Shown here piece by piece: positions 10,278-35,598 of a DNA stretch of 64,000 nucleotides; within the stretch, counting starts at the first letter, position 1, and every line of letters begins with the position of its first letter. The notes beneath the pieces were generated by a model, which did no database searches, had not been told where the DNA came from, and saw only the letters and a program-made list of their open reading frames with translations. A program made the position numbers and the translations under genes. Origin of the DNA: a virus; IMG/VR virus record IMGVR_UViG_3300008448_000012, positions 50,471-114,470 of that record; one strand, given 5' to 3'.

Positions 10278-10278
10278 T

Positions 10279-16029: not shown

Positions 16030-16076
16030 TCAAATGTCATATAGCTATATTATGCCAAATAACTTTCTGTAGGTCA

Positions 16077-16117: not shown

Positions 16118-16150
16118 AAACTATATTTCAATCATTTATATATAATTGCA

Positions 16151-19100
16151 ATGAACATAACTTGTTCTGCTAAAGCCTGTCCTGTACTATTAAGTGCTGC
16201 CTGCGTGTTCTACGAAGGAGTTAATCTCCCATATACGGGAATTAACATGAATGATAATTTACAGGTGGCTCTTGAGAAGATTGATACAAAGTTCAACAGC
16301 TTAATTGATGTTAATATATATGTATCTAATGGTACAGTAACCAGCAATAGAACTGTCACTCTCAATGGTAAGACACTCAGTTTTGTTGGTTCTTCCTACA
16401 CAACAATATTTCAGCCTGCAGGAACATTGCAGCTTGGATCATTGGCTGGTGCTGGAAACAGAATGGTGATTGCTGATACAAATGGTTTGCTAAGCACACA
16501 GGCAATTCCCCTTGGAACTGTTACATCTGTAGACATGTCTGTTCCTACAGGATTTGCAATAAGTGGTAATCCTGTTACAACATCAGGAACTCTTGCTCTT
16601 GCATTTGCTTCAGGATATTCTTTGCCTACAAACTCAAGTCAATCAAATTGGGATACAGCATATAACTGGGTGAGCAATTTCCCAGCACTTGTAGCTGGAC
16701 AATATCTGACAAATAATGGCACCAGTCTTTCATGGTCAGCAATAGATCTCTCTGGATATGTTCCATATATAGGAGCTACACAAGATGTTGACCTTGGAAC
16801 ACACAAACTCACTGCTGATGCAATTGCATTTAGCCTTACACCAACAAACTCTCCAGGTGCAGGACAGATTGCATATTATGGTGGAACAGGCGCACTTGCC
16901 TATTTGATGGACAATACAACTGTGATGTGCCAAATAGGACAGCAGTTGTATGCTTATGTAACAAATGATGACACTGTAACAATCCAAAAAGGACAACCTG
17001 TATATCTGTATTCAGCAACAGGAAACAGAGCTTCTGTAAAGCTTGCTGCAAATACAGGTGATGCTACATCAGCCAAAACACTTGGACTTGCTGCTCAAGA
17101 TATTACATCTGGACAGAAAGGCTTCATCATGTGTCAGGGTGTTCTTGACGGTTTGAATACTGGGATGTATAATTCTGGTGACACTCTCTATCTTGGACCA
17201 ACAGCTGGTTCCTTGACAGCCACAAAACCATATGCTCCAAACCACCTTGTTTACATAGGTGTTGTAGAAAGAGCAAACAATGGTAATGGACAAATATATG
17301 TACGTCCTCAGAACGGATATGAGCTTGATGAGATACATGACGTAGACCTCATCAGCACTCCTCCTGTTAATAACGACATTCTTACATACATTACAGGAAC
17401 AAACAATCTATGGAAACCAAGGAGTATTGCAACCATTCTTGGCTACACTCCTGCAAATGCAGCAACAACTCTTACAATCAATGGTACAACCTATGACATT
17501 TCTGCAAACAGAACTTGGAGTGTAGGAACTGTAACATCTATTGCCACATCTGGTCCTATAACAGGAGGAACAATTACCACCTCAGGTACAATTGGTATTA
17601 CACAAGCCACAACATCAACAGATGGTTATTTGTCTTCCACAGATTGGAATACATTCAACAATAAATACAATCTCCCTGCTCTTACATCAGGTAGTGTTCT
17701 GTTTAGCAATGGTACAACAATAGCTCAGAATAATGCCAACTTCTTTTGGGATAATGTAAATGGGAGATTAGGATTGGGAACTTCAAGCCCAAGTGCTGCT
17801 GGAGCGAGATTGACTATATCATATAGTGATAATAGTTATAATCAAGGTTTTGTTATACAAAATACAAACACAGGGACTACTGCAATTACGGGTATGCTTC
17901 TACAAGCACAAAGCACTTTAGTAGCAGCTTTTGCTTATTATCCAAGCAATTACAATATAGCAGGACTACAAAATACTGCGGTATTTTCATCAGTAACATC
18001 TCAAAAATTAGGATTTCAGGCTAATGCAGCAGGTAACAATGGAGTGCCTCAAGATATTTGGTTCAGTACTTATGGTACAAATACTACTTACCAAATGCAA
18101 ATAAAAGCAAATGGTAATGTACAAATAAATACTAATACCGATGCAGGATATAGATTAGATGTCAACGGTACAACAAGACTTCAGGGTAATACAACAATTA
18201 GTACAGGAAACCTTACCGTTACATCAAACGGCACCAATACTTTTGGTTATTACACATTAGTAGGTACAAGTAATAATCTCACTTTAAACGGTGGTCATCT
18301 TGGAACTACGTTTAAGAGCAGGGATCCAAATATGGATAGCCAGTACAATAGTGCTCTTTTTTCTATTGGTGCTACTAACTTTAATGGAACATCAGGTATT
18401 CCTCAAATCCTTAATGTTAATGCAACTGTAAACAGTACAGGAACAGCAGGATATACAGGTTTACAAGTATCTATTACAGATACAGGGACTGGTACTGGTG
18501 CTAAAAATCTAATGAAGCTTTCTCTTGGTGGTGTTGATAGATTTTCTGTATCTAATACAGGTGTACTCACTTCAACAGCAGCTGTGACAGCATCTGCAGC
18601 ATTGGCAAGAGGTGTTATCTTTAATCCAACATTAACAGCTGCTGCTAACAATGATGTATTGGTTGGGCTTGACATAGCTCCTACATTTACTAACGGTGCT
18701 TTCACTGGTGTTAGTAACTGGGCATTGAGAATTCAAGGAGGTAATATATCACTAGGAACATCTACATCAAACCCCACTATAAATCTTGCAGCTTCTAATA
18801 ACGCAAGTGCCACACAATTTGTAATTAACAACTCTGCTTATGGTGGAACCTTAGTGACATTTAGAAACCCTGCTGACAGTAGATATTTTAGAATAAGTGG
18901 AATAAACTTTGACTTATATACAAGTGGAAATATTTATCCTACTAATGTTATAGCTGGATCGATTTCATTTGGTAGTAGCTATGGTACAATTATTTATGGA
19001 TTTAACAACTCATACTTAAACCTAGGTGGAGATACTGTTGTTCTTGCATCTAGGGATAACACAGCAGCAAGTATCTCACTACTTGCAGGTAATGGAGACA

Positions 19101-19759
19101 TCAACTTTCAACAGAGACCATCAGGTGTTACAACACTTAGAGCTAAATTTGCAATTTCTACAGGTAACTTCATGATTCAAAATGGAGGTACATTTACAGA
19201 TAGTGGTGAGAGATTGCAAGTTATTGGAGATGCTAAGTTCACAGGAACAATGTATCAAAACAGTGCAAGTGATGCTTTGTACAATTTCCAGAATGGTGGA
19301 GCAAACAAATGGAGGATTGGTAATGCATTTGTTGCAGGAGCAAACTATTTCCAGTTGTATGACAGTGTAAGCAGTCTTGAGAGAATCAGATGGAACAATA
19401 ATAGTACAGCTACATTTACAAGTGATTTCACATTTGTGGGTGGTTCAAATGCTGTAGCTACATTCCAAGCAGCTCAGCCTGATGTAAAGATACAAGCTAC
19501 AGGAGGATCAAATGCTGTATCCCTATCCTTCGCTCCTTCTGACGGATTTGAAGGTGTTGTTCAGAATAATGTAACAAATGGTTTCATACAAGTGAAGACA
19601 GCCTCTACAATTAGGGTGACATTTAAAAATGGAGGACAAGTGAACTTCCAACCTCTTGCTGCTGATCCAGCTGGTGCAGGTGCAGGAGATGTATATTATA
19701 ATTCAGGAACAAATAAGCTTCGTCTTTATGACGGAACTTCTTGGGTAGACTTAAATTAA
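16151..19759 (+). CDS. Long tail fibre / receptor-binding protein
   Basis: Gly/Thr/Asn-rich. Cys-rich N-terminal adaptor; fibre blocks GTVTSV, GYLSSTDWNTFNNK, FFWDN..RLGLGT and RLDVNG; C-terminal GDVYYNSGTNKLRLYDGTSW. Confidence 0.85.
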   Translation: MNITCSAKACPVLLSAACVFYEGVNLPYTGINMNDNLQVALEKIDTKFNSLIDVNIYVSNGTVTSNRTVTLNGKTLSFVGSSYTTIFQPAGTLQLGSLAGAGNRMVIADTNGLLSTQAIPLGTVTSVDMSVPTGFAISGNPVTTSGTLALAFASGYSLPTNSSQSNWDTAYNWVSNFPALVAGQYLTNNGTSLSWSAIDLSGYVPYIGATQDVDLGTHKLTADAIAFSLTPTNSPGAGQIAYYGGTGALAYLMDNTTVMCQIGQQLYAYVTNDDTVTIQKGQPVYLYSATGNRASVKLAANTGDATSAKTLGLAAQDITSGQKGFIMCQGVLDGLNTGMYNSGDTLYLGPTAGSLTATKPYAPNHLVYIGVVERANNGNGQIYVRPQNGYELDEIHDVDLISTPPVNNDILTYITGTNNLWKPRSIATILGYTPANAATTLTINGTTYDISANRTWSVGTVTSIATSGPITGGTITTSGTIGITQATTSTDGYLSSTDWNTFNNKYNLPALTSGSVLFSNGTTIAQNNANFFWDNVNGRLGLGTSSPSAAGARLTISYSDNSYNQGFVIQNTNTGTTAITGMLLQAQSTLVAAFAYYPSNYNIAGLQNTAVFSSVTSQKLGFQANAAGNNGVPQDIWFSTYGTNTTYQMQIKANGNVQINTNTDAGYRLDVNGTTRLQGNTTISTGNLTVTSNGTNTFGYYTLVGTSNNLTLNGGHLGTTFKSRDPNMDSQYNSALFSIGATNFNGTSGIPQILNVNATVNSTGTAGYTGLQVSITDTGTGTGAKNLMKLSLGGVDRFSVSNTGVLTSTAAVTASAALARGVIFNPTLTAAANNDVLVGLDIAPTFTNGAFTGVSNWALRIQGGNISLGTSTSNPTINLAASNNASATQFVINNSAYGGTLVTFRNPADSRYFRISGINFDLYTSGNIYPTNVIAGSISFGSSYGTIIYGFNNSYLNLGGDTVVLASRDNTAASISLLAGNGDINFQQRPSGVTTLRAKFAISTGNFMIQNGGTFTDSGERLQVIGDAKFTGTMYQNSASDALYNFQNGGANKWRIGNAFVAGANYFQLYDSVSSLERIRWNNNSTATFTSDFTFVGGSNAVATFQAAQPDVKIQATGGSNAVSLSFAPSDGFEGVVQNNVTNGFIQVKTASTIRVTFKNGGQVNFQPLAADPAGAGAGDVYYNSGTNKLRLYDGTSWVDLN

Positions 19760-22608: not shown

Positions 22609-23247
22609 ATGAAACTAACTAAATTAAAAATTAACGAGCTTTGGAATAAATTACAGAGCGTAATTTCAAAAAACCCAGAGGAAGTATCTATTATTATAGA
22701 AGAAGAATCTCCTATTATAATAGAAGAAACCCCACCTCCTCCTCCTGATATGGCTGTAATTTCTGAAGAGCAGCCTATAATAAATGAAGCAGAAGAGGAG
22801 GTTATTGAATATAGAGGATTGTTTTTTGATAACAATAAACAAACAGCTCCAAGAGACATAATCAGAGCTGTTAAGTTTGGTAATACAAATGAGGCTTACA
22901 CAAACAAGTTTATTGTTAAGAACAACACATCAGGCAATCCAACAAGAATTACAGCATTACGTAAGGGATCTTATACACTAAGAATATCTGCCCAACTACA
23001 AAAGTTATCAGTAACTAAGAAAGCTCAAGTTGTTCTTTGCGTAAGAAAGAATGATTTGAATGTACCAGATACAGCAACCACTATAATAATGGAACCAGGA
23101 CTTGTGGGATTGATTGCAACATGGGATTTTTCCATAGATATGCTGGCTGGAGAATATATAGAAATAATATGGTCACAAAATGGTGGAGTGGAAATATCAA
23201 ATAAGCAGACACCAAGTGTGATGTTGAAGATTAATCAGATAATATAA
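22609..23247 (+). CDS. Putative virion protein, acidic/Pro-rich linker plus C1q/TNF-like beta-sandwich
   Basis: IIIEEE repeats and TPPPPP; C-terminal ..GSYTLRISAQL...AGEYIEIIW pattern. Confidence 0.5.
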   Translation: MKLTKLKINELWNKLQSVISKNPEEVSIIIEEESPIIIEETPPPPPDMAVISEEQPIINEAEEEVIEYRGLFFDNNKQTAPRDIIRAVKFGNTNEAYTNKFIVKNNTSGNPTRITALRKGSYTLRISAQLQKLSVTKKAQVVLCVRKNDLNVPDTATTIIMEPGLVGLIATWDFSIDMLAGEYIEIIWSQNGGVEISNKQTPSVMLKINQII

Positions 23248-25067
23248 TGACAAGTAGACAAATAGGATGGAGCCAAGAATCTAACCTTCTCTATGAAATA
23301 GGGAAGCAGTTGGATATTCTTGCCAAGGTTTTAGCAAACTCTGGTAAGGGTAGTTTGGAAGCATACCCAGATTTGGCTTCTTTTCCTCCAGTGGGAGTTC
23401 CAGGAGTGATATACTTGGCTGAAGACACTGGATACATATATTATTGGGATGGAGCATCTTATGTTCAGTTTGGAGGAGGATCATATGTTCCTACCTCAAG
23501 ACAGCTAACCATAAATGGTGTTACGTTTGATTTGTCAGCAGACAGAACATGGACAATAAGTACAGGGGATGATATAACTGTTGTAGCAAACTATTCAGCT
23601 CTCCCTGCTCCAAACACTGTAACAGGACAATTCTATTGGTGTTCAAATCCTCAAGGAACAGCATGGCTTCCTGGATCTGTAGGAGGAACATACTATAATT
23701 CAGGACTTTATTATTCAAATGGAACAACATGGGAATTTCTCAATGTTCCATACCAAGCAACACAATCTGAGGTTAATGCAGGAATAATATCAGACAAGTT
23801 TGTAACTCCAAACACTCTGTTCAATTCTTCCCAATGGGGCACAAAAGAAAACCCATTAACATTCTCTGCCCCTCTTTCAAGAAGTGTAAACACAATTAGC
23901 ATTCCTGCTGCATCGTCTTCAGCCAATGGTTATTTATCATCTACGGATTGGTCAACATTCAATGGCAAACAAGGTGCTTTAACACTCACCACCACAGGCA
24001 CATCAGGTGCTGCTACATTGGTAGGAAATACGCTTAATATTCCGCAGTATTCAGGCGGAGGTGGTGGTATGGCTATCGGTGGAAGCATAACTTCTGCAAC
24101 GGCAGGTAGTGTGTTGTTTGCGGGAACAAGTGGGGTGTTGGCGCAGGATAATAGCAACCTGTTTTGGGACAATACTAATAAGAGGTTGGGGATTGGGACG
24201 GTAAGTCCGCAAGGCCCTTTTCATATCAATTCAAATATTACTGCAGCTACTAATGGTTTAACAATAACAAGAAATGCAGTTTCTTTATCAGATGCAAATT
24301 TTCAGATAACAAGTGCAACAAATAATAGCGGAGAATTTTTACCTGCTTTTTTATTCACAAGTAATTTTTCTGCTCCTGGATTTACAATTGGTGGTTTTTT
24401 AAGTGCAAGAATTACAAATAGTTCAACAACTGATATAGGAATTATTCTTGATGCAAGAACTAAATCAGCTTCAGCATTAACACAAGGATACATTTTATCG
24501 ATTAGAGGTTTTACAACTGATTATGTTCGAATAGCACATAATGGTAATATGATTCTACAAAACGGAGGCACTTTCACCGACGCAGGCTTCAGACTCGATG
24601 TTAACGGAACGATGAGGGTGCAGAGTGAGACTGTATTAAATAATTTTTCAATTGGTAGAACATCACTTTCTCCAAGCTATCCTGCAATATGGATAGATAA
24701 TGGGAATAGAACGCTTTTATCAAATTATTCTTATTCAGGATACTTACAACTTCAAGGCGCATATAATAATGAGGGAGCGCATTTAAGACTTTCAGGAAAA
24801 ACTTCTATATCAAATACGGCTAATAGCGCAATTTTAATTACGAGTGGATTTGTTATCGGTGTTTATGGAGTTGATAATGTAGGAATAAATCCAAACACTT
24901 CTGCAATATTACAAGCTAACTCAACTACTCAGGGCTTCCTTCCTCCAAGAATGACAACCACGCAGAAAAACGCTATAAGTTCTCCAGCATCAGGATTGGT
25001 GGTTTATGATTCTACAACAAATAAACTTTGCTGCTATAACGGCAGTACATGGAATGATTTATTTTAA
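23247..25067 (+). CDS. Tail/head fibre protein 2 with RQIGWSQE anchor
   Basis: N-terminal MTSRQIGWSQESNLL; fibre blocks shared with ORF 16151; C-terminal GFLPPRMTTTQKNAI..GLVVYDSTTNKL..YNGSTW. Confidence 0.8.
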   Translation: MTSRQIGWSQESNLLYEIGKQLDILAKVLANSGKGSLEAYPDLASFPPVGVPGVIYLAEDTGYIYYWDGASYVQFGGGSYVPTSRQLTINGVTFDLSADRTWTISTGDDITVVANYSALPAPNTVTGQFYWCSNPQGTAWLPGSVGGTYYNSGLYYSNGTTWEFLNVPYQATQSEVNAGIISDKFVTPNTLFNSSQWGTKENPLTFSAPLSRSVNTISIPAASSSANGYLSSTDWSTFNGKQGALTLTTTGTSGAATLVGNTLNIPQYSGGGGGMAIGGSITSATAGSVLFAGTSGVLAQDNSNLFWDNTNKRLGIGTVSPQGPFHINSNITAATNGLTITRNAVSLSDANFQITSATNNSGEFLPAFLFTSNFSAPGFTIGGFLSARITNSSTTDIGIILDARTKSASALTQGYILSIRGFTTDYVRIAHNGNMILQNGGTFTDAGFRLDVNGTMRVQSETVLNNFSIGRTSLSPSYPAIWIDNGNRTLLSNYSYSGYLQLQGAYNNEGAHLRLSGKTSISNTANSAILITSGFVIGVYGVDNVGINPNTSAILQANSTTQGFLPPRMTTTQKNAISSPASGLVVYDSTTNKLCCYNGSTWNDLF

Positions 25068-25078
25068 TACATAATAAC

Positions 25079-25102
25079 ATGGCAAATATTCAACCTGTTT
25101 GA
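25079..25102 (+). pseudogene. 7-codon relic of a fibre-chaperone gene (MANIQPV*)
   Basis: Matches the start of ORF 19791 (MAQIQPIV) and sits in the same position, right after a fibre gene. Confidence 0.55.
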
Positions 25103-25126
25103 AGTTGAATAATAAAATATAATAAA

Positions 25127-26299
25127 ATGGCTAATAGACAAATTGGTTGGAGTCAGGAAGCTAATCTTCTATATCTCATCTCTGGACAAGTGGACAGGGT
25201 TGCCCAAATAATTGCTAGTTCTGGTGTAGGAGGTGGGGTGAGTTCGTTCAATACCAGAACAGGAGATATTACACTTCTTTCTTCAGATGTAACAACTGCT
25301 CTTGGATATACGCCTACAAATGGTAATATTTATGGTACTAATGGTTCACTCACTGGAGTGAGAACTGTTAATACAGGAGCATATGCATTGGCTTTCACTG
25401 CTACACAGCCTGCTGCCAGTTATGCATTTACAATTGGTACACCTACAGGTGTGAGTGTTCCTTCTTGGCCTGCAACATTTGTAAGGCAAGGTGAATTTAA
25501 TATTTCATCAACATCTTCTGCTGAACCTGAAAACTCCAGGTATTGGGGAAGAAACCAAACGACAGCTCTTAAAAGTCTTTATGTAAATCAATCATATGCT
25601 GATGTCACTGCTGAAACAGCAGGAGGAGGTGTTTCTTTATATAATCAAAGTATAAGAACATACAGAGGATCTCCACTTGATATAAGCACTGCAGTTACAA
25701 CATTGTCTAATTTAACAGGTGTAGTTAATACTATAGGACATGGTTATTCTGGAACATCGTTAACTACTGCTCAAATACATACCCAAAATGTAAACGCAGT
25801 CCAATCTTCTATACAGAATAACGTTGGTACAATGGTTAATGCTAACGGATATCGTATTATTCTTTCGATGTCACCAACCTCAACCAGTCAGAATTCCGCA
25901 ATTACAAACTTCTATGGAGTAAATATAGGTACATTTACCATAGGAGCAACCAGTGGACCAACAGCCACCATTACAAATTTCTATGCTCTTTATATAGATG
26001 GTATAACAACCCGTGCTACAGGAACTGTTACAAACAGGTGGGGTATATATTCAACAGATTCCACTATGACACATTACCTTAATGGTAATGTATTGATTGG
26101 TACAAGTACAATTGCTGGATTTAAACTAGATGTAAATGGGACGATGAGAGCATCTCAGTTTTATTTGAGTGCATTGAATTCAACTCCTGCTTCAGCAGGA
26201 GCAACAGGAACACTTGGAGAAATCAGAATTGACGCAAACTATATTTATGTATGTACAGCAACCAACACTTGGAAGCGTGCATCCATAGCAACTTGGTAA
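25127..26299 (+). CDS. Fibre protein 3 with RQIGWSQE anchor
   Basis: MANRQIGWSQEANLL, VSSFNTRTGDITL block, C-terminal GEIRIDANYIYVCTATNTWKR. Confidence 0.8.
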   Translation: MANRQIGWSQEANLLYLISGQVDRVAQIIASSGVGGGVSSFNTRTGDITLLSSDVTTALGYTPTNGNIYGTNGSLTGVRTVNTGAYALAFTATQPAASYAFTIGTPTGVSVPSWPATFVRQGEFNISSTSSAEPENSRYWGRNQTTALKSLYVNQSYADVTAETAGGGVSLYNQSIRTYRGSPLDISTAVTTLSNLTGVVNTIGHGYSGTSLTTAQIHTQNVNAVQSSIQNNVGTMVNANGYRIILSMSPTSTSQNSAITNFYGVNIGTFTIGATSGPTATITNFYALYIDGITTRATGTVTNRWGIYSTDSTMTHYLNGNVLIGTSTIAGFKLDVNGTMRASQFYLSALNSTPASAGATGTLGEIRIDANYIYVCTATNTWKRASIATW

Positions 26300-26310
26300 A
26301 ATATAATAAA

Positions 26311-26994
26311 ATGGGAATTCCAAATAGACAAATAGGTATTTATAAAATCACTAGTCCTAGTGGTAAAACCTATATTGGTCAAAGTTGGAATATTAGAAAA
26401 AGAATTTATAAGTATAAAAGTGTACAAGGTTGCAAAAAACAAAGAATTTTATATAATTCTCTTAAAAAATATGGTTGGGAAAATCATATATTTGAAGTTG
26501 TCTATACATTACCCATAGAAACAGAGCAACGCACTTTAGATAACTATGAAATATTTTATATTATTCAGTTTAAAGAAGCTGGATATGAAATGATGAATAT
26601 AAAAGAAGGAGGTTCAGGAGGTAAATTATCTAAAGAATCTATACAAAAGATGATAGAGACTAGAGGAAAATGGAACCACTCAGAAGAAACTAAAAAGAAA
26701 ATCAGTGAGTCTCACAAAGGAATAAAACATTCTTTAGAGACTATTAAAAAAATGAAAGGAAGAAAATTTACAATTGAACATGTAAATAAAATGAAAGGAA
26801 GAAAGCGCAATGAATCAACTGTAGAAAAATTTAAAAAAATTATTCTTCCTGGCAGATTAGTTTTAGATAAAGAGATGGGAATTTTTTATGATAGTATTGC
26901 GATGGCAGCTAAAATTTTTAGAATAAATCAAAAAACACTACATAATAGACTTACAGGAATTTCAAAAAATACTACTAATTTAATACTTGTATAA
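26311..26994 (+). CDS. GIY-YIG homing endonuclease with NUMOD3-type repeats
   Basis: GIYKITSPSGKTYIGQS and HSEETKKKISESHKG repeats. The likely start is ATG 26311 (MGIPNRQIG). Confidence 0.9.
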   Translation: MGIPNRQIGIYKITSPSGKTYIGQSWNIRKRIYKYKSVQGCKKQRILYNSLKKYGWENHIFEVVYTLPIETEQRTLDNYEIFYIIQFKEAGYEMMNIKEGGSGGKLSKESIQKMIETRGKWNHSEETKKKISESHKGIKHSLETIKKMKGRKFTIEHVNKMKGRKRNESTVEKFKKIILPGRLVLDKEMGIFYDSIAMAAKIFRINQKTLHNRLTGISKNTTNLILV

Positions 26995-26996
26995 TT

Positions 26997-27137
26997 ATGA
27001 TACCTTCAAGACAAATAGGATGGTCTCAAGAAGCCAATCTCTTATGGGAGATAGCAAGAAAACTTGAAAGACTTATTCAAGTTGCTGGACCAACAAGTCC
27101 TACAACCACAACCACTACTACAACTGTAGCTCCTTAA
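26997..27137 (+). CDS. 46-aa RQIGWSQE-anchor peptide with poly-Thr tail (not in track)
   Basis: MIPSRQIGWSQEANLLWEIARKLERLIQVAGPTSPTTTTTTTTVAP; Thr codons are mixed. Confidence 0.8.
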   Translation: MIPSRQIGWSQEANLLWEIARKLERLIQVAGPTSPTTTTTTTTVAP

Positions 27138-27164
27138 GAATTATAAAACCAACAAAAACTACAT

Positions 27165-28184
27165 ATGAAGGATCTAAAGTTCCTTTGCGTTCAGCCTGAT
27201 GATCATTATTACGTTTGGCAAGTGCACACATGGATTGAGAGTTTAAAAAATATTGGAAAGAGTGGGGACGCTATAGTGGTTGTTTTCACTCCAGACTTCA
27301 GAGAATTCAATACGAAATGGAAAGAGCTACAGGCTTTGTATCCAGAGGTTGAATTCTTTTTTGTTAAGGATGAGGATGGAATCAGCAAACTGATAAGAGT
27401 GTATATTCCCATCATCAGACCTTATTCACTGATGAAATATTTTCAAGCTCGTCCAGAGATGGTACAAAAAGCAATATTCTATTGTGACTGTGATATCATC
27501 TTTACAGAGAAGTTCAATGTTGATCAATATGTAGATGATGATGTTTGCTACCTATCTGATACAAACAGCTACATCAATGCTTCATATTTTGACAGCAAGA
27601 TAAAAGATGTCAAACCTGAACTTCTCGAAGAATATAAGAAGATGGATGTTCTTTCTGGAGCATGCAGTCTTGTAGGAATAACACGTGAGATATGTGAGAA
27701 GAACAATCAGCATTCAGGAGGAGCACAATATCTTCTGAAGAACGTAGGAGCAAGCTTTTGGGAAAAGGTGATTGGTGATTGCATTATGATAAGAACCTAT
27801 CTCTCTGCTATAAACAAAGACTTCTTTGAGAATGAGAGTAAGGGGTTTCAGTCTTGGTGCTCTGATATGTGGGCTGTGCTTTGGAACCTTTGGTTAAGAG
27901 AACAAGAAACAAAATGTATTCCTGAAATGAATTTTGCATGGAGTACAGATCATATAAGTAAATTAAATAATTCAACGATCCTTCATAATGCAGGAATATC
28001 ATCCACACATATGGGAGATGTTCCAGTGTTCTACAAAGGACTCTATCACAATAAAAAAGATCCTTTTGAGGATCCACATTTAACCAACGTTTTAAATAAT
28101 GAAAAGAGCAAGAGTCTCTGTAATCATTACTATTTGACAAAAATGTTTGAAGTTAAAAATAAATATAATTTAAACTATGGCTAG
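27165..28184 (+). CDS. Putative GT-A glycosyltransferase (HPAT/SGT, GT95/GT96-like)
   Basis: DxD motif FYCDCDIIF, GGAQYL, WCSDMWAVL (resembles the W..EM motif of HPAT/SGT enzymes) and ILHNAG. Confidence 0.6.
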   Translation: MKDLKFLCVQPDDHYYVWQVHTWIESLKNIGKSGDAIVVVFTPDFREFNTKWKELQALYPEVEFFFVKDEDGISKLIRVYIPIIRPYSLMKYFQARPEMVQKAIFYCDCDIIFTEKFNVDQYVDDDVCYLSDTNSYINASYFDSKIKDVKPELLEEYKKMDVLSGACSLVGITREICEKNNQHSGGAQYLLKNVGASFWEKVIGDCIMIRTYLSAINKDFFENESKGFQSWCSDMWAVLWNLWLREQETKCIPEMNFAWSTDHISKLNNSTILHNAGISSTHMGDVPVFYKGLYHNKKDPFEDPHLTNVLNNEKSKSLCNHYYLTKMFEVKNKYNLNYG

Positions 28185-28596
28185 TAATAAACGCTTTTTA
28201 AAAGCATACGCAAGATTTGATGGTTCTGGAAGAATTGTTCCATCTAGCACTATTCTCAGAAAGAATAAACCTAAGGTGGGTAATTGGACAGAAGTGCAAA
28301 CATATGAGTGCTGCAATGAAGTATCCTCCTATGATCTATTTGCTATACCACCATTACCAATAACTTGGCCCGATGTAATATTTTTCTGTAACGAAGAAGG
28401 ATTACCTATTGGATCTGGTTTCCCAGGAACATACACAACATTGGAAGAGCTAGCAGATGCATTTAATGCTGAAATAGGCTCAATGTATGGAGTTTTCTCA
28501 GTGTACAACGATGGTATAAAACTCACGGTATCAGCAGAGTTTAAGAACACCCACTGTCCAAATGGTGTTTTAACATATGGTATTATACCAGACTAA
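28177..28596 (+). CDS. KR..CC anchor family paralog 1
   Basis: KRFLKAYARFDGSGRIVPSSTILRKNKPKVGNWTEVQTYECCN followed by a small domain ending CPNG. Confidence 0.75.
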   Translation: MASNKRFLKAYARFDGSGRIVPSSTILRKNKPKVGNWTEVQTYECCNEVSSYDLFAIPPLPITWPDVIFFCNEEGLPIGSGFPGTYTTLEELADAFNAEIGSMYGVFSVYNDGIKLTVSAEFKNTHCPNGVLTYGIIPD

Positions 28597-28606
28597 AATA
28601 TAAAAT

Positions 28607-29029
28607 ATGTCTAACAAACGTTTCCTAAGAGCTTTTGTAGAATACGATGGAACAGGGAGAGTGCTTCCTGGAAGTCTTGTTCTGCGTGGCAACATCCCAA
28701 GAGTTGGGAACTGGGGAGAGATTCCTGCATACAAATGTTGCAATCCCTCTACACCAATGTCCAACACTGTAACAGCTGGTGGTGAACCAGGAACTATTTG
28801 TGTATATGGATTTGAGCTGTTCTGTGATGAATTGTTTCTGTTTGGAATAGCATTTGATTTTGGAGACACTATGACAAGTGTTCTTTCAGGATTGAATTCT
28901 TCATATGGATTCCTTGGACAATGGACAGCTCCTGACAGTGGAACAATCAAGCTTGATATGAAAGACGAAGTTGCTAAAGGACTTTGTCCAAATGGAACCA
29001 TAACAATTACCTATATTTGTGGAGGATAA
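28607..29029 (+). CDS. KR..CC anchor family paralog 2
   Basis: KRFLRAFVEYDGTGRVLPGSLVLRGNIPRVGNWGEIPAYKCCN; C-terminal domain homologous to paralog 1. Confidence 0.75.
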   Translation: MSNKRFLRAFVEYDGTGRVLPGSLVLRGNIPRVGNWGEIPAYKCCNPSTPMSNTVTAGGEPGTICVYGFELFCDELFLFGIAFDFGDTMTSVLSGLNSSYGFLGQWTAPDSGTIKLDMKDEVAKGLCPNGTITITYICGG

Positions 29030-29034
29030 ACATT

Positions 29035-30531
29035 ATGGAAAAAAGAATTTTAAAAGCTTACGAACGTTACGATTATAATGGAAGAGTTGTACCAGGCAGC
29101 CTTGTATTGAGAAGTAAGAAGCCTAAGAACGGTAAATGGAAGGAAGTACAAGCCTATAGATGTTGTAATGAAACAGGAGGTATTTGTACTAATTTCTGGA
29201 TTAACCAAACAGTGAATCCAGATAATCTAGATGGTGTTTGGACAGTAGGATCAGGAATGGATACTCAATGTAATTCATTTATGATAATGGAAGATTACTG
29301 GACCAGTCCAAACAACCCTAATCAAGATTCCCCACAAAACTTAGTGCTACAAAAGTTAAATAACGCTGGTGAGGTAGTTTGGAATAGAGTGTTTGATTTT
29401 GCAGAAAGTGGTGTAGACTATGAATATTTGGAAGCTCAAACAATGGGCGTAGACAAAAATAATAATGTGATTGTTTGTCTAATAGCATATGTTACAGCAA
29501 CTTCTAAACAAAGAACAGGTATCATAAAGTTTGATAATGATGGTAATAAGTTATGGGCAATAATTCTTACAGATTCTATCTATGATCAAGAATATGTAAC
29601 CTCTATAAAATTTGATAGTTTTAATAATATTTATCTTGCTATTCGTGGAGGTGGAAGTACAGGTGGTATAATAAAAGTTACTCCAGAAGGTGCAATAGTA
29701 GACAAAAAGTATTTAGTCCATCTATACAACCTAGATGAGTGTTATATAGAAGTGAATTCAAATAACGAAATTTATTTGATAACCAAATATTATGGTCCTC
29801 CACCCATTTATAACGCTCGTATTATTAAATTGGATTCTTCTCTAAATGAAATTTGGAATAAGAGCTTTGATCCAGATACAGGTGGTACTCCATATGGTAT
29901 AGCATTAGATGCAAATGAGAATATAGTATTTCAAATAGGTAATGGAATTGGTGCAAATACATCATCTCTATTTGGAGCATACATAAAGGTGTCACCAGAA
30001 GGAAACTTTATTTGGGCTACTAGGATATCTAATACTATAGATCCTGATGTTTCTCTTGGAACTTTTCAATTAGACTCTGATAAAAGCGGTAATGTATATA
30101 TTTCATCAGGTTATCCATCCTCAATTCCTGGATATAGTACTAATCCAAGCAATACAGTAATTATAGCAAAACTGTTACCAAATGGATCTCTTGATTGGGT
30201 TTATGGTATAGAGTCTGTTAGTAGCATATATCCTTGGTATTGGAGTAGTCCAATAGTGGGAAAAGTTGTAAACAATGCTCTTATTCTTGCATATTATAAT
30301 GATGGAGATCCATTTGATGCACAATTGTTTAAACTTCCATTAACTGCTGTAGCTGACGGTACATATGGAGATTATACATTTACAAACATCACTAACTTAT
30401 GGACAACATCAAATCCTTCAATTATACTTAGTGATGCTGAAAGTATTTGGACATCTGATTCTACAAATTCAGTGGAATTGAACTATCTTACATTTGAGGG
30501 AACTTACACAACAACACTTACATCTTTGTAA
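29035..30531 (+). CDS. KR..CC anchor family paralog 3 with beta-propeller-like domain
   Basis: Start ATG 29035 (MEKRILKAYERYD). Repeats KLNNAGEVVW, KFDNDGNKLW, KLDSSLNEIW, KVSPEGNFIW and KLLPNGSLDW. Confidence 0.75.
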   Translation: MEKRILKAYERYDYNGRVVPGSLVLRSKKPKNGKWKEVQAYRCCNETGGICTNFWINQTVNPDNLDGVWTVGSGMDTQCNSFMIMEDYWTSPNNPNQDSPQNLVLQKLNNAGEVVWNRVFDFAESGVDYEYLEAQTMGVDKNNNVIVCLIAYVTATSKQRTGIIKFDNDGNKLWAIILTDSIYDQEYVTSIKFDSFNNIYLAIRGGGSTGGIIKVTPEGAIVDKKYLVHLYNLDECYIEVNSNNEIYLITKYYGPPPIYNARIIKLDSSLNEIWNKSFDPDTGGTPYGIALDANENIVFQIGNGIGANTSSLFGAYIKVSPEGNFIWATRISNTIDPDVSLGTFQLDSDKSGNVYISSGYPSSIPGYSTNPSNTVIIAKLLPNGSLDWVYGIESVSSIYPWYWSSPIVGKVVNNALILAYYNDGDPFDAQLFKLPLTAVADGTYGDYTFTNITNLWTTSNPSIILSDAESIWTSDSTNSVELNYLTFEGTYTTTLTSL

Positions 30532-30533
30532 TT

Positions 30534-30662
30534 ATGGAAACTACCACAACCACTACTACATCTGCTCCTGTTGAAAAATTATACGGTAGAGAACTTGCAG
30601 ATAAATTGAGAGAAGAAAGAGAGCAAAAAAGAGTTGCCAGACTTCAGTCTTCTCAACAGTAA
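30534..30662 (+). CDS. 42-aa peptide with N-terminal poly-Thr (not in track)
   Basis: METTTTTTTSAPVEKLYGRELADKLREEREQKRVARLQSSQQ; tightly packed between its neighbours. Confidence 0.7.
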   Translation: METTTTTTTSAPVEKLYGRELADKLREEREQKRVARLQSSQQ

Positions 30663-30680
30663 TATATTAAAATAGAAGAA

Positions 30681-31589
30681 ATGGATAAAAGAATTCTTAA
30701 AGCTTACGAAAGATATGACTACAATGGTAAAGTTGTTTCTGGTAGTCTTGTACTCAGATACAAAAAGCCTAAAAATGGTAAATGGAAAGAGTTGACAAGT
30801 TATGAGTGTTGTAACGACATAACAACTACCACTACAATTCCTCCAGCATTTAGAATGTTTGCAACTACTACATCTCCTAGTCAGACATTTCAATTCTCAA
30901 TAGGATCATTAGGAGGAGTTTTACCACTTAATATAGATTGGGGTGATGGTAATTCAGAAACAGTTAGTACTCCTACATACTCATCATCTGATCTAGCACA
31001 TACATATGTTTCCCCAGGTTCATATGTAGTGACTCTTACTAGTACTTCTCCTCAATACTTTGGTGTCTTAAATTCATTTACATCAATTCTAAAAAATATA
31101 ACTGGATGGGATCAGTTTCCAAATATGACAGGTTTATACATAAGTAATGGTGGATTTACATCAGTAGACTTTGGCACTCTAAATTTCTTAAGTTCAGTAA
31201 CTCTTATAGACATGCCAAGTCTTACATCTTTTACATTTACAAGTCTTCCTGCATTAAGTTTCTTACATTTGTATGGTACTAATATATCAGGAAATTTGTT
31301 TAGTGGGAAATCTCTTCCACTTCTTAGTGAGCTTAATGCTGCTTATACAGATATCACCAACATTGACTTATCAGGACTTCCAGACTTATACATCTTACGT
31401 TTGATGGGCTGTGCTATAACAAATAGTACAGATATTGATAACATATTTATTGGTATTCTTGCTAATGATAGAACAGGTGGTGTAATTGATGTAAGTGGAG
31501 GAACTAATGCTGCTCCAACAGCTGCTAGTGCTGCTGCTAGAGCCACTCTTACAAACTTTGATTACGACTACTATTTAGCTTACAATTAA
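30681..31589 (+). CDS. KR..CC anchor family paralog 4 with Thr linker, PKD-like and LRR domains
   Basis: Anchor, then TTTTTIPP, IDWGDGNSETV..HTYVSPGSYVVTL (PKD-like) and LP.L..L.L repeats (LRR). Confidence 0.75.
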   Translation: MDKRILKAYERYDYNGKVVSGSLVLRYKKPKNGKWKELTSYECCNDITTTTTIPPAFRMFATTTSPSQTFQFSIGSLGGVLPLNIDWGDGNSETVSTPTYSSSDLAHTYVSPGSYVVTLTSTSPQYFGVLNSFTSILKNITGWDQFPNMTGLYISNGGFTSVDFGTLNFLSSVTLIDMPSLTSFTFTSLPALSFLHLYGTNISGNLFSGKSLPLLSELNAAYTDITNIDLSGLPDLYILRLMGCAITNSTDIDNIFIGILANDRTGGVIDVSGGTNAAPTAASAAARATLTNFDYDYYLAYN

Positions 31590-31604
31590 TAAAACAAATA
31601 TAAA

Positions 31605-32015
31605 ATGGCAAAATCCCTATTTCCAGAAGACATGATGTCAAAGTCTGGAGGAGCTATGACTCTTGAAACCATCGCAGCTAAGCTCACTTATTTTCATGAG
31701 CAATTGCATCTATTGCATTGGCAAACAAGCTCTTATGCTGAGCATCAAGCTCTTGGAGGATTGTACGATTATGTACATGATTTCAAAGATGGATTGATTG
31801 AAAAGATTATGGGATATACAGGGAAGCGTCCTAGTGGTTATAAAATTGATTCAGTTACAGCAACAGCTGCCACTTCTGTAGTTAGTGAACTTATGGCATT
31901 TGCTTCTAGTCTAAAAGATTATGGAGAAGCAAATTCATATCACGATGTTTGTAATCTTGCTGATTCTCTTTCTGGAGAAGCAGCTAAAACTAAATATCTG
32001 CTAACCCTCAGCTAA
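31605..32015 (+). CDS. Ferritin/Dps-like protein (DUF5856-like)
   Basis: LHLLHWQTSSYAEHQALGGLYD...DGLIE...KTKYLLTL pattern. Confidence 0.75.
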   Translation: MAKSLFPEDMMSKSGGAMTLETIAAKLTYFHEQLHLLHWQTSSYAEHQALGGLYDYVHDFKDGLIEKIMGYTGKRPSGYKIDSVTATAATSVVSELMAFASSLKDYGEANSYHDVCNLADSLSGEAAKTKYLLTLS

Positions 32016-32296
32016 TGCAAATACATACAAAATTCTTTCCCCAAGTGTTGCAAGATAATGAAATAGCTTATTTTGCACACTTGGAGGGAATTTTAGAGGC
32101 AGTGGATGAATTGGCTTCTTTAGAGATAACAAAAAATCCACACTCATACCACTTTAGACTAGCTCCTTCTCTACCAAAATATAACGACATGTTATTGGAA
32201 GAGCTATTAAAGTTTCACAATTTGCTGCAGATAAAGCTGAATCTCAGCAAGAGTATAAAAAGTTCAGCAACAATAGTATTTGAAATTTCAATTTAA
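32015..32296 (+). CDS. Hypothetical protein
   Basis: 93-aa ORF, TAATG-coupled to the upstream gene. Confidence 0.6.
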   Translation: MQIHTKFFPQVLQDNEIAYFAHLEGILEAVDELASLEITKNPHSYHFRLAPSLPKYNDMLLEELLKFHNLLQIKLNLSKSIKSSATIVFEISI

Positions 32297-32301
32297 CTGA
32301 C

Positions 32302-32772
32302 ATGCCTACATTTATTAAAACAGGATTTTGGGAAAAACTGTCTAAAGCTCCCAAGGAATATTTGAATCTTGACAACCTCATCCAATCAATTGGAGGAGGA
32401 GGAGGTGGTTCCTATCTTAAATATATTGCTTCAATGGGGCAAGTTGGAATCAGTGACCCTCAGGTGATTGTTCATGAGAACACAATAGGTAATATTGTTT
32501 GGACAAGAGATTCTGATGGTTTATATATAGCCACTTTAGCAGGAGCATTTCCTAACGGAAAAGTTTGGTGCAATGTAACCTCAGGTTCCAACTATGGCAA
32601 CACTACAATTCCTATTGGGTTTGCAAAAGAAAATTTTAATTCAAATGATTCACTTGCACTTCGTACAGGATATATTGATGCTACAGGTGCAGATGTTCCT
32701 GTAGATATAAATTCAAATTTTGGACCTAATGTTGTTTATGAGTATTCTATTGAAATTCGTGTATACCCATAA
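32302..32772 (+). CDS. Putative virion protein (short N-terminal module, Gly linker, beta domain)
   Basis: MPTFIKTGFWE...GGGGGG-YLKY...ENTIGNIVWTR..GLY. Confidence 0.55.
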   Translation: MPTFIKTGFWEKLSKAPKEYLNLDNLIQSIGGGGGGSYLKYIASMGQVGISDPQVIVHENTIGNIVWTRDSDGLYIATLAGAFPNGKVWCNVTSGSNYGNTTIPIGFAKENFNSNDSLALRTGYIDATGADVPVDINSNFGPNVVYEYSIEIRVYP

Positions 32773-32826: not shown

Positions 32827-33054
32827 ATGGAAAAAATTAAATACGATCCTACAAAATCCTACAAATGGACACCAGATGATTCTTTTATTTTGTCTGGAGG
32901 AGAATTCGGAACAATTCTAAATGCATTCCGTGCTGTACTTTCTTCTCAAGAAGCCCAAAAAATCATTGCTGTTGAAAGAGCAAATGATTTGCTTGAGGGA
33001 GTTTTGAAGAAAGCTGTAGAAGATGGAATTGCTGTAGAGTCAAATAATGAGTAA
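32827..33054 (+). CDS. Hypothetical protein
   Basis: 75-aa ORF downstream of the promoter. Confidence 0.65.
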   Translation: MEKIKYDPTKSYKWTPDDSFILSGGEFGTILNAFRAVLSSQEAQKIIAVERANDLLEGVLKKAVEDGIAVESNNE

Positions 33055-33227
33055 TGAAAAAACAAATGATTAAACGCAAGGATGGTTCTGTCTCACAACG
33101 TGGTTTGTGGGACAACTTGAGGAGCAAAGCTGCTGAAAATAAAGCATCAGGAGCTAAGCCCAAAAAACCTACAGCCCAAATGCTTAAGCAAGAGAAGAAG
33201 ATTAAAGCTGCTTCTAAGAAGAAATGA
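33054..33227 (+). CDS. Small Lys-rich protein (57 aa, not in track)
   Basis: MKKQMIKRKDGSVSQRGLWDNLRSKAAENK...KAASKKK; TAATG coupling. Confidence 0.7.
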   Translation: MKKQMIKRKDGSVSQRGLWDNLRSKAAENKASGAKPKKPTAQMLKQEKKIKAASKKK

Positions 33228-33304
33228 AAATGTGTGGTATCCATATAATCCCTTTGGATGAACATGGACTATGTCCAATATGTCTAAATGATAAAAACAC
33301 TTAA
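33224..33304 (+). CDS. 26-aa putative zinc-binding micro-protein (not in track)
   Basis: MKMCGIHIIPLDEHGLCPICLNDKNT with CxxH...CxxC; ATGA coupling. Confidence 0.5.
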   Translation: MKMCGIHIIPLDEHGLCPICLNDKNT

Positions 33305-33306
33305 TT

Positions 33307-33462
33307 ATGGCAAAGGTAAGCAAAGCTAAAAACATCTCTGCAGGTGTTGGTGGCAAAGGTAAGAAAGCTCCTATGGTAGATCCCAAAGGTGCTTATACAA
33401 AAGTGCAAGAACGCACTCTTGGTAACATGAAGAAAGGCGGTAAAGTTTCTAAAAAGAAATAA
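33307..33462 (+). CDS. Small Lys-rich protein with MKKGG motif (51 aa, not in track)
   Basis: MAKVSKAKNISAGVGGKGKKAPMVDPKGAYTKVQERTLGNMKKGGKVSKKK. Confidence 0.7.
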   Translation: MAKVSKAKNISAGVGGKGKKAPMVDPKGAYTKVQERTLGNMKKGGKVSKKK

Positions 33463-33464
33463 CC

Positions 33465-33626
33465 ATGGCTACAGATAAAAAGTGGATACAAAAAGCCACT
33501 GCTTCTATTAAACGTAGAGGTACAGAAGGTAAATGTACCCCCATCACTAAACCTGGATGCACAGGTAAAGCTAAAGCCCTTGCCAAGACTTTCAAGAAAA
33601 TGGCTAAAGCCCGTAAAGGCAAATGA
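33465..33626 (+). CDS. Small Lys-rich protein (53 aa, not in track)
   Basis: MATDKKWIQKATASIKRRGTEGKCTPITKPGCTGKAKALAKTFKKMAKARKGK. Confidence 0.7.
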   Translation: MATDKKWIQKATASIKRRGTEGKCTPITKPGCTGKAKALAKTFKKMAKARKGK

Positions 33627-33826
33627 CAATATTCGAACCATCAAATCGTGTTGAGGTTTCTACTCCCAAAGGTGATGGAGTCATTTGGTTAGTGACCGAG
33701 TTTGGTCATGAAACAGATACAATTTACACTGTAATTATTAATGATACAGGTGAAATGTGGCAGTTGCGTCATAAAGATATTATTGTAAAGAACAACATTA
33801 CTTTTGGTAGAAATGGCAACTATTAA
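33623..33826 (+). CDS. Hypothetical protein
   Basis: 67 aa, ATGA-coupled. Confidence 0.6.
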   Translation: MTIFEPSNRVEVSTPKGDGVIWLVTEFGHETDTIYTVIINDTGEMWQLRHKDIIVKNNITFGRNGNY

Positions 33827-34172
33827 AAAACTTCTTCAGGATGCTCCTAGGATGAGAGGTGTTACACCTGTTCCTAATGGACCATTGGTTAAGAAGAAAG
33901 GACCTTATAAAGGATCCACACTTAAATCAGGTGGTAAGGTGAAGGTTGTTGCTGGTGGTGAAAAGCACGTAGTTTACAAAGCTTCAAAGAAAACTTCTAA
34001 AGGTAAACCTGGAGATGTTATGGTGAATCATCCTACAATGGATAAAGGTAAATGGGATACCATTAATCTTACCAAGAAAGGAAAAGCCAAAACTGTTAAA
34101 CAGGGAGTTGCTGCTACAAAGAAATGGCACAAAGACAACCCTGATTATAAATACAAGGGTAAAAAGAAATAA
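33813..34172 (+). CDS. Lys-rich protein with LKSGG motif
   Basis: Start ATG 33813 (MATIKK). Confidence 0.7.
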   Translation: MATIKKLLQDAPRMRGVTPVPNGPLVKKKGPYKGSTLKSGGKVKVVAGGEKHVVYKASKKTSKGKPGDVMVNHPTMDKGKWDTINLTKKGKAKTVKQGVAATKKWHKDNPDYKYKGKKK

Positions 34173-34173
34173 A

Positions 34174-34476
34174 ATGGCTACTGTTAAAAAAGTTATGAAG
34201 TCTGGTGGTAAAACACCTGCTTGGACACGTTCTGAAGGAAAGGATCCAAAAGGAGGTCTCAACCGTAAGGGTGTAGCTAGTTATAGAGCTGCTAATCCTG
34301 GCAGTAAGTTAAAGATGGCTGTAACTACACCTCCTTCTAAGTTAAAGAAAGGTAGTAAGGCAGCAAAAAGAAGAAAAAGTTTTTGTGCCCGAATGTCAGG
34401 AGTTAAAGGTCCTATGAAAAAACCAAATGGTAAACCTACAAGAAAAGCTCTTGCTCTTCGTAAATGGAATTGTTAA
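34174..34476 (+). CDS. Basic phage protein (DUF6321-like)
   Basis: Start ATG 34174. PAWTRSEGKDPKGGLNRKG..RRKSFCARM...ALRKWNC is a widespread phage family pattern. Confidence 0.7.
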   Translation: MATVKKVMKSGGKTPAWTRSEGKDPKGGLNRKGVASYRAANPGSKLKMAVTTPPSKLKKGSKAAKRRKSFCARMSGVKGPMKKPNGKPTRKALALRKWNC

Positions 34477-34495
34477 TCATAAAAATTAATATAAA

Positions 34496-34765
34496 ATGGC
34501 AACTGTTAAAAAGAAAATGAAATCTGGTGGATCTCTTGGTATGAAATCAGTTAAGGCTGGTTATGACAAGAATCCTTCTGTAACTAGGGCTGACGTTATC
34601 GTAGCTGCTAAGGGTGAAGCTAAACATGGTACTAAAATGAAGAAAGCTAAAAGTGGTGCTGCTTTGAAAAAGCAAGCTGCTACAGCTATTGCCATGAAAA
34701 AAGCTGGTAAGGCTCCCAAGAAGATGATGAAGATGGGTGGTAAATGTAAATATGGTTGCAAATGA
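34496..34765 (+). CDS. Lys/Ala-rich histone-like protein with repeated xKxG(G) motifs
   Basis: MATVKK, MKSGG, AKHG, AKSG and MKMGG. Confidence 0.7.
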   Translation: MATVKKKMKSGGSLGMKSVKAGYDKNPSVTRADVIVAAKGEAKHGTKMKKAKSGAALKKQAATAIAMKKAGKAPKKMMKMGGKCKYGCK

Positions 34766-34899
34766 AATCAGGCAAACCAAAGAAAGCTCCTAAAGTGAAA
34801 AATCCTCGTCCAAAGGATAATTACATGAAGGAAGCTGATACAAAGCTTAGACTCAAAAGTCCTCAATGGCCTATGAAGCAGAAGAGATTATCAAAATAA
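34762..34899 (+). CDS. Small Lys-rich protein (45 aa, not in track)
   Basis: MKSGKPKKAPKVKNPRPKDNYMKEADTKLRLKSPQWPMKQKRLSK; ends at the terminator. Confidence 0.65.
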   Translation: MKSGKPKKAPKVKNPRPKDNYMKEADTKLRLKSPQWPMKQKRLSK

Positions 34900-34900
34900 G

Positions 34901-34930
34901 AAAAGCCCCAATTAATTTTGGGGCTTTTTT
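34901..34930. terminator. Bidirectional intrinsic terminator at the arm convergence
   Basis: AAAAGCCCCAA-TTAATT-TTGGGGCTTTTTT between convergent genes. Confidence 0.85.
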
Positions 34931-35598
34931 ATTTTCTTATAATAGTCTTGTTTAAACCTTGGAGATAGTGTAATCACTCCTTTTGTATTATCCAACACCT
35001 TGTCTGCCTTGTTTAGGATTGTTTCATTGGATTGTTTACCCAGTCCTGATATATGTAGAGTGTTCATTCCCCATCTATATATCATTGTTGGATCATCTAT
35101 GGTGTATATTTTGGCATTGTTTGAAAATGTAATGTCAGCATCCTCATCTCCACTTTTATCTGGAAACTTGATTCTGTCTAAATAGGATTTAGTGTATACA
35201 TTCCCATTATTTACACTGCCTGTAATTTTATCATAGACATTGTTCACAAAGAAATAGTGTCCCTTGCTTCTGTATATTTCATATCCAGGATTGGATTGAA
35301 TTGCTTCAGACACAATCTTCAATCCTCCATCATACAAAAGATCATCATCATCGAGTCTATATATGTAATCATATTTACACTGCTTATATCCCCATTCAAG
35401 TTTAGAGGCTATAGATGGAAATCTTTCTTTACAATTGATAACTCTCACCCTGTCATGGTTATAAACATAATCCACTTCTGGATTATCATTTATAATAACC
35501 ATTTCACAATTAAGTGAATCATCCTGTTGTAAAAAAGATTCAATAGCTTCTTCAAGAAGATGATGTCTTTTATATGTTATTGTAAGTGTAGATATCAT
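34912..35598 (-). CDS. Glycosyltransferase family 2
   Basis: ITYKRHHLLEEAIESFLQQ, EMVIIND and IYRLDDDD. Confidence 0.85.
   Translation of the reverse strand: MISTLTITYKRHHLLEEAIESFLQQDDSLNCEMVIINDNPEVDYVYNHDRVRVINCKERFPSIASKLEWGYKQCKYDYIYRLDDDDLLYDGGLKIVSEAIQSNPGYEIYRSKGHYFFVNNVYDKITGSVNNGNVYTKSYLDRIKFPDKSGDEDADITFSNNAKIYTIDDPTMIYRWGMNTLHISGLGKQSNETILNKADKVLDNTKGVITLSPRFKQDYYKKIKKPQN

Follow-up and report, generated by a model that had tools for sequence, protein, structure and literature searches.

We analysed a 64,000-nucleotide stretch of viral DNA (the window; positions 50,471 to 114,470 of IMG/VR record IMGVR_UViG_3300008448_000012), which forms the final 64 kb of a complete virus genome of 114,470 bp with direct terminal repeats. 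The open reading frame (ORF) at 27165-28184 encodes a 339-residue glycosyltransferase (GT) of the GT-A type, surrounded by genes with short threonine runs. We consider it probable that this enzyme is a cytoplasmic protein O-glycosyltransferase which tags the phage's own virion proteins via these runs. The prediction draws on the modelled fold of the enzyme, on the Thr runs themselves, and on the co-occurrence of both in other phages.

The enzyme and its fold relatives

A preliminary description of the window had recognised a GT-A enzyme by its motifs CDCD (residues 107-110) and WCSDMW (residues 231-236), and this assignment holds. An AlphaFold2 (AF2) model built from an alignment of 74 diverse homologues displays a GT-A fold in one compact, soluble domain, with a predicted local distance difference test (pLDDT) score of 97.3; a single-sequence AF2 model reached a pLDDT of only 41 and was not used. 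D108 and D110, which form the DxD motif, are invariant across the 74 homologues at 30-50% identity. H274, K291, and Q188 are also conserved and, as read without residue-level superposition, may correspond to the His/Lys/Gln positions of GT8-type enzymes. The model aligns with dozens of GT-A enzymes at Z 9-14.4, spanning residues 1-339, and the best solved folds (VIA Z) are Skp1 AgtA (14.4), LgtC (14.2), glycogenin (14.0), UGGT (13.6), WbbM (13.5), GlyE (13.0), and LARGE1 (13.0). Foldseek returns 225 PDB matches at E<=0.001 (E 7e-7), and in a viral structure library the matches are uncharacterised members of the enzyme's own family, followed by GT8 proteins. As judged from the model, the enzyme is confirmed as a GT-A fold glycosyltransferase of an unnamed phage family, while retaining (alpha) transfer is only suggested by its nearest folds.

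The enzyme resembles retaining GT8-type GT-A enzymes (glycogenin, LgtC, GlyE; also the GT24 enzyme UGGT and Skp1 AgtA) in fold, at Z 13-14.4 over most of its length, in its DxD motif, and in being soluble, and several of these enzymes act on proteins or protein-bound glycans. It differs from them by an identity of only 7-12% in the structural alignments, by the absence of any Pfam GT match at E<=10, and by a length ~60-100 residues beyond compact GT8 catalytic domains. The sequence matches no Pfam family even at E<=10 (hmmscan) and no NCBIfam model. The CAZy GT8 model (PF01501) finds neither the enzyme at E<=10 nor any of the 74 members at E<=0.01, and the sole PHROG match is phrog_4417, to which no function is assigned. 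The PDB yielded no significant sequence match to the enzyme, to its profile, to four fibre-type proteins, to the capsid protein, or to the head-module protein described below.

Plant and algal HPAT (GT95) and peptidyl-Ser alpha-galactosyltransferase (GT96) are peptide O-glycosyltransferases that act on extended peptides rich in Pro, Ser, and Thr. The preliminary description had placed the enzyme closest to these two families, which turns out to be a weaker likeness than claimed. A faint profile link exists via a single family member of 74 (HPAT model PF23452, E 1.3e-4), and the model is also carried by 10% of the members of one nearby Atlas cluster, whereas the window enzyme itself has no PF23452 match by hmmscan at E<=10. 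A six-frame genome search with PF23452 and PF23741 gave no match, though its controls gave no match either. The closest solved folds are instead the retaining GT8, GT24, and Skp1-AgtA enzymes; solved GT95 or GT96 structures do not occur among the fold matches, so the likeness in fold is not comparable.

Homologues are abundant (1519 in one database and 755 representatives at 50% clustering in another), and some are fused to GT2, DXD-type GT, GlcNAc-GT, O-FucT, F5/8 type C, methyltransferase, or radical-SAM domains. By tblastn (E<=1e-3), the enzyme is present in 77 of 50,697 phage records, which by host are assigned to Lactobacillus (23), Enterococcus (21), Staphylococcus (11), Lactococcus (8), Clostridium (3), unnamed (6), and others (5); phages of Streptococcus, Bacillus, or Mycobacterium do not occur among the 77. 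All annotated rows listed among these records label the enzyme "hypothetical", and our literature search found nothing on the family or on Thr tags in phages.

Threonine runs and their association with the enzyme

Within the window, the Thr runs noted previously are all present, namely T8 in a 46-residue ORF directly upstream of the enzyme, T7 in ORF 30534, and T5 in ORF 30681, each with mixed ACA/ACC/ACT codons. The whole genome holds seven runs of at least five Thr in six proteins, all in late genes on the + strand, whereas 2000 within-protein shuffles produced 0.106 such runs on average and never more than 2. Three of the six carriers lie outside the window and are head-module and virion-region proteins. 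Among them, a highly conserved 377-residue head-module protein (G000 26718-27851), encoded ~1.9 kb downstream of the gene for the major head protein and without a PHROG or PDB sequence match, ends in T7-AAPIL. Its IMG/VR orthologues (64-85% identity) carry a Thr/Ser-rich C-terminal tail of varying length in 70 of 80 cases; the tail is absent from the other ten, most of which end in a GTPTPDPLVP-like sequence.

The co-occurrence of enzyme and Thr runs proposed in the preliminary description extends to many unrelated phages. Fourteen enzyme loci were taken from this lineage, other Bacteroidota-type phages, and Firmicutes phages, of which 13 were evaluable over a flank span of 6 kb (L005 is truncated at the 5' end). 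As controls, 8 loci of enzyme-free phages with an orthologue of the phiFL1A tail tube protein were used, together with two whole Streptococcus phage genomes. Thr-rich tails or linkers lie within 6 kb of the enzyme in 13/13 evaluable loci, and no Thr tail or run was found in the enzyme-free controls (0/10). At face value this corresponds to a Fisher p of ~1e-6, with the loci being related, and the strict orthologue contrast (2 vs 10) gives p = 0.015.

In Firmicutes phages, capsid and tail-tube proteins bear the tags as C-terminal tails, often in the gene directly upstream of the enzyme. Examples of loci with Thr-rich runs are phiFL1A gp45 and tail tube protein gp50 (with the enzyme gene following gp50), orf10 and orf13 of 1706, orf50 of bIL285, the major tail proteins of SA2 and Planchet, gp11 and gp18 of phiCTP1, R3.3, Bacchae, and (TTVxP)n in SAC12B; in Chryseobacterium phage MA9V-3, T/S runs reach 20-40 residues. 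The enzyme gene itself resides inside siphophage head or tail modules, between the tail tube and chaperone genes in phiFL1A and after the capsid genes in bIL285 and Planchet. Pro occurs within +3 of the run in 34 of 66 runs, x-Ala/Lys-Pro punctuation is found in both host groups, and 25 of the 66 runs finish within four residues of the protein C-terminus.

The enzyme could alternatively act on other targets, such as glycans of the host envelope, in serotype conversion or superinfection exclusion, or the DNA of the phage, with the Thr runs being mere flexible linkers or tails that are frequent in these structural genes by coincidence. Its GT8-type relatives include lipopolysaccharide and O-antigen enzymes such as LgtC and WbbM, the best-known roles of glycosyltransferases in phages are the modification of DNA and of O-antigen (PMC12619734), and in Herelleviridae-type Lactobacillus phages the enzyme gene has recA and sigma-factor genes as neighbours and lies outside the head-tail module. 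Against this stand the runs at protein termini, which link nothing, the absence of runs from enzyme-free tail-tube orthologues, the position of the gene within siphophage head or tail modules, and a model that consists of one compact soluble domain. Moreover, neither ThyA nor ThyX was found in this phage, so that no hydroxymethyl-pyrimidine route for DNA glycosylation is visible; because of this, and because many Thr tracts are terminal tails, DNA glycosylation is an unlikely role. As a whole, we regard this other-target explanation as improbable.

Given glycosylated tags, it may further be asked whether the enzyme starts the glycan. It might only extend a host-started glycan or prime itself like glycogenin, rather than being a peptide-directed initiator. 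The closest folds do include extenders and a self-primer (GlyE, Skp1 AgtA, UGGT, glycogenin), and some homologues are fused to additional GT domains. However, five complete genomes of Firmicutes phages with enzyme and tails encode no PF00535 (GT2) or PF00534 (GT1-type) gene, so that in these carriers, if the glycan is phage-initiated, this enzyme has to be the initiator. In addition, the comparison of tail-tube orthologues shows tags only where the enzyme gene is present, a dependence not required if the host started the glycan. An extending or self-priming enzyme is therefore, in our estimation, the least probable of the alternatives.

The only other glycosyltransferase found in this phage is a GT2 at 34912-35598, which the preliminary description had considered as a possible extender of the glycans. 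This link is weaker than claimed. The gene ends a convergent minus-strand unit opposite the late operon, across a bidirectional terminator. Homologues exist in L004, L005, G003, and G004, and absence from the complete relatives G001 and G002, which keep the GT-A enzyme and the tags, rules the GT2 out as an obligatory partner. It is dispensable and accessory, with at most a putative link to the system. The terminator (34899-34930) is a strong hairpin of 13 pairs with T-runs on both strands, and the 3' end of the GT2 gene falls inside it.

Several points weigh against a peptide-directed O-glycosyltransferase and its virion tags. The association test covers few loci, which are phylogenetically non-independent, and all controls are Streptococcus or Bacillus phages. 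Genomes with a tail-less head-module protein had been expected to be devoid of the enzyme, and this prediction failed: the enzyme is encoded by each of the five near-complete relatives, including three tail-less ones, and the lack of a match in five shorter fragments carries no weight. Because tail-less relatives still carry the enzyme, it is therefore core in this lineage, with the choice of tagged proteins varying, and its universal presence means that the lineage offers no enzyme-free control. Furthermore, the enzyme matches no curated GT model, and glycosylation by its family is a prediction from genes and a structure model. Docking of the shared N-terminal modules (RQIGW and KR; see below) to the virion is presumed, the fibre identity of their carriers is suggested by weak PHROG tail matches, and ORF 30534 has a single homologue (41 residues, 76% identity), in which the frame is kept.

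Shared N-terminal modules and the Thr microprotein

All ORFs named in the preliminary description were recovered at their positions. On the + strand, three genes with an RQIGW module (606, 390, and 46 residues) precede the enzyme and four genes with a KRxLKAY...CCN module (139, 140, 498, and 302 residues) follow it. The enzyme ORF begins 28 nucleotides past the microprotein stop and overlaps the next gene (28177) by 8 nucleotides. The features are as follows.

23247-25067, + strand: 606-residue fibre-type protein with RQIGW N-terminal module (ORF and N-terminal alignment; no Pfam or PDB sequence match)
25127-26299, + strand: 390-residue tail-fibre-like protein with RQIGW N-terminal module (C-terminal part matches the PHROG tail-protein families phrog_17312, E 5.9e-6, and phrog_37350, E 7.6e-10)
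26311-26994, + strand: GIY-YIG homing endonuclease (phrog_314, E 6e-30; weak Pfam GIY-YIG/NUMOD3)
26997-27137, + strand: 46-residue microprotein consisting of RQIGW anchor, T8, VAP, and stop (ORF and database relatives)
27165-28184, + strand: GT-A glycosyltransferase, 339 residues, proposed peptide O-glycosyltransferase (phrog_4417, an unnamed phage family; AF2 model; fold matches)
28177-28596, + strand: 139-residue protein with KRxLKAY...CCN N-terminal module (ORF and N-terminal alignment)
28607-29029, + strand: 140-residue protein with KR...CCN module (ORF and N-terminal alignment)
29035-30531, + strand: 498-residue protein with KR...CCN module and SBBP-type beta-propeller (NCBIfam SBBP, E 7e-13; weak Pfam DUF5122)
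30534-30662, + strand: 42-residue ORF with N-terminal T7-SAP followed by a charged helix, gene status uncertain (ORF; one homologue)
30681-31589, + strand: 302-residue protein with KR...CCN module, T5 linker, PKD domain, and leucine-rich repeats (Pfam PKD_4, E 4e-5; LRR_4, E 1e-5; weak internalin B match)
32302-32772, + strand: 156-residue protein with a third shared N-terminus (MPTFIKTGFWEK...; N-terminus recurs in L003 and L004)
34912-35598, - strand: GT2-family glycosyltransferase, accessory (Pfam PF00535, E 1.3e-12)

Alignments bear out the two paralog arrays with constant N-termini that had been described on either side of the enzyme. In the RQIGW genes (23247, 25127, 26997), R4, Q5, I6, and G7 are invariant; in the KRxLKAY...CCN genes (28177, 28607, 29035, 30681), 19 columns are invariant, nearly all within the first ~47 residues. 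The passengers behind these modules vary and, as had been proposed, include domains of adhesin type, i.e. the SBBP propeller and the PKD and leucine-rich repeat domains. The arrangement is maintained in relatives. The order RQIGW-type genes, enzyme, KR-type genes, and DUF5856 is found in L003-L005 and L111-L115, where a KR-module gene directly follows the enzyme, and the RQIGW N-terminus also opens genes beside the enzyme in L003 and L004. Anchor genes with Thr runs adjoin the enzyme in the window, L003, L004, and L111-L115, and anchor-plus-Thr ORFs of 41-81 residues or Thr linkers flank it in every relative whose flanks are covered. The third shared N-terminus, MPTFIKTGFWEK, also opens a 492-residue protein in L003 and a 162-residue protein next to the Thr microprotein in L004.

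The 46-residue microprotein is a conserved gene. Its relatives fall into several database clusters of 43-48 residues with the same build (anchor, T7-T9, stop) at 62-98% identity, and equivalents lie directly upstream of the enzyme in L003, L111, L113, and L115 and near it in L004. Some database relatives of 34 residues are without a Thr run. A homing endonuclease absent from the preliminary description is located between the second RQIGW gene and the microprotein ORF. It begins MGIPNRQIG-IYK and thereby takes over the initial residues of the microprotein gene; the latter starts anew 2 nucleotides past the endonuclease stop (window 26251-27137). In database protein P0274 (66 residues), the same upstream residues continue directly into the microprotein; P0274 is thus the endonuclease-free, uninterrupted allele. 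The endonuclease is a passenger inserted at the start of the microprotein gene and stands outside the system.

The Thr-run DNA of the microprotein ORF and of ORF 30534 (window 27100-27120 and 30543-30562) shares an identical 18-nucleotide stretch (ACCACAACCACTACTACA), hinting that the tag may have been copied between the two genes. ORF 30534 lacks a counterpart in the related loci. A frameshift that would fuse it to ORF 29035-30531 across the 2-nucleotide gap was considered, and no slippery site was seen.

Even with a real link between enzyme and tags, the 46- and 42-residue ORFs could be degraded remnants of fibre genes, produced by recombination or by insertion of the endonuclease, rather than functional mini-fibres of the particle. 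The exact position of the endonuclease at the microprotein start would fit such an origin, as would the shared 18-nucleotide stretch, the single homologue of ORF 30534, and the relatives without a Thr run. A decaying gene would, however, not be expected to keep its build, as the microprotein does at 62-98% identity in several clusters and beside the enzyme in five relatives, and we consider this origin quite unlikely.

More tentatively, and with rather more doubt than assurance, we propose that anchor-plus-Thr proteins of 43-81 residues could be glycan-only mini-fibres on fibre docking sites. T(n)-x-Ala/Lys-Pro would then be the portable sequon of a single-enzyme O-glycosylation shared by Bacteroidota-type and Firmicutes phages, giving a self-made mucin-like coat.

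Predicted mechanism, comparison with known systems, and neighbouring genes

In the predicted mechanism, a soluble, cytoplasmic, metal-dependent (DxD) GT-A enzyme, a fold relative of retaining GT8-type enzymes, would late in infection use a nucleotide-sugar to glycosylate the hydroxyl groups of short Thr(/Ser) runs. The runs would be portable tags, in most cases T5-T10 with x-Ala/Lys-Pro or the protein end behind them. In this phage, they are located directly behind the ~30-47-residue N-terminal modules (RQIGW, KR...CCN) shared with fibre-type proteins, in the 46-residue module-plus-T8 protein, at the C-terminus of the conserved head-module protein, and inside two further virion-region proteins. 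The products would be particle proteins with small mucin-like glycan tufts, the microprotein being an anchor with a glycan as its sole passenger. We infer Thr as the acceptor, as well as the sugar with its alpha linkage and any role in shielding, solubility, or adhesion. Modules and tags would be displayed on the virion, where they may form a shield or contribute to adhesion.

In streptococcal serine-rich repeat adhesins, GtfA/B and GT8 enzymes such as GlyE, which are soluble and cytoplasmic, glycosylate long Ser/Thr-rich tracts before export or assembly of the surface fibre. The phage locus likewise combines a soluble enzyme with Ser/Thr tracts of putative surface fibres, and GlyE ranks among the best fold matches. 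Unlike in the adhesin pathway, a GT-B initiator (PF00534) is absent from this phage and from the five Firmicutes carriers, and the tags are short instead of extending over hundreds of residues.

To our knowledge, glycosylated phage particles have been demonstrated only for mycobacteriophages. Published summaries (PMC12619734 and PMC10877033) of Freeman et al. 2023 (Cell Host Microbe 31:1216) describe O-glycosylation of their virions by phage enzymes, the glycans being attached to the C-terminal ends of capsid and tail-tube subunits. The system proposed here would follow the same logic. In both, a phage-encoded glycosyltransferase lies within or next to structural genes, and Thr tails are found on capsid and tail-tube proteins of the homologous Firmicutes loci and, as T7, on the head-module protein of this phage. 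The enzyme family is another one, given that no Mycobacterium phage occurs among the 77 tblastn records, and the stereotyped Thr-run tag, the anchor-only microproteins, and the fibre linkers, which are known here from their genes, likewise set the system apart.

If this enzyme family acts likewise by way of a simple Thr tag, virion glycosylation would be widespread and include phages of enterococci, staphylococci, and lactic acid bacteria as well as large environmental phages. It would matter for the stability of phages, their recognition by the immune system during therapy, their adsorption, and their interactions with mucus, and glyco-engineering would gain a convenient tool in a system of one enzyme and a short tag. 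The proposal is directly testable because cultured carriers exist, among them Enterococcus phage phiFL1A, Lactococcus phages 1706 and bIL285, Lactobacillus phage LP65, Staphylococcus phage SA2, and Chryseobacterium phage MA9V-3.

The locus has no megablast match in the phage records. By capsid protein, the nearest isolates are a Leptolyngbya phage (27%) and Flavobacterium phages (22%), and by enzyme a Chryseobacterium phage (34%). After the KR-module array, a DUF5856 gene (Pfam E 3e-14) and a 93-residue gene occupy window 31605-32296; the position of the former is kept in L005 and L111-L115, that of the latter in L004 and L005. Three giant + strand ORFs (at least 3424, 1916, and 1202 residues; window 3-19759) lie ahead of the lysis and fibre genes. 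Further downstream, window 33054-34765 encodes a series of small, strongly basic, Lys-rich proteins, of which 33804, 34108, and 34496 have the start MAT(V/I)KK in common, also present in L005; by their sequences, they resemble paralogs and may be DNA-binding or internal proteins.

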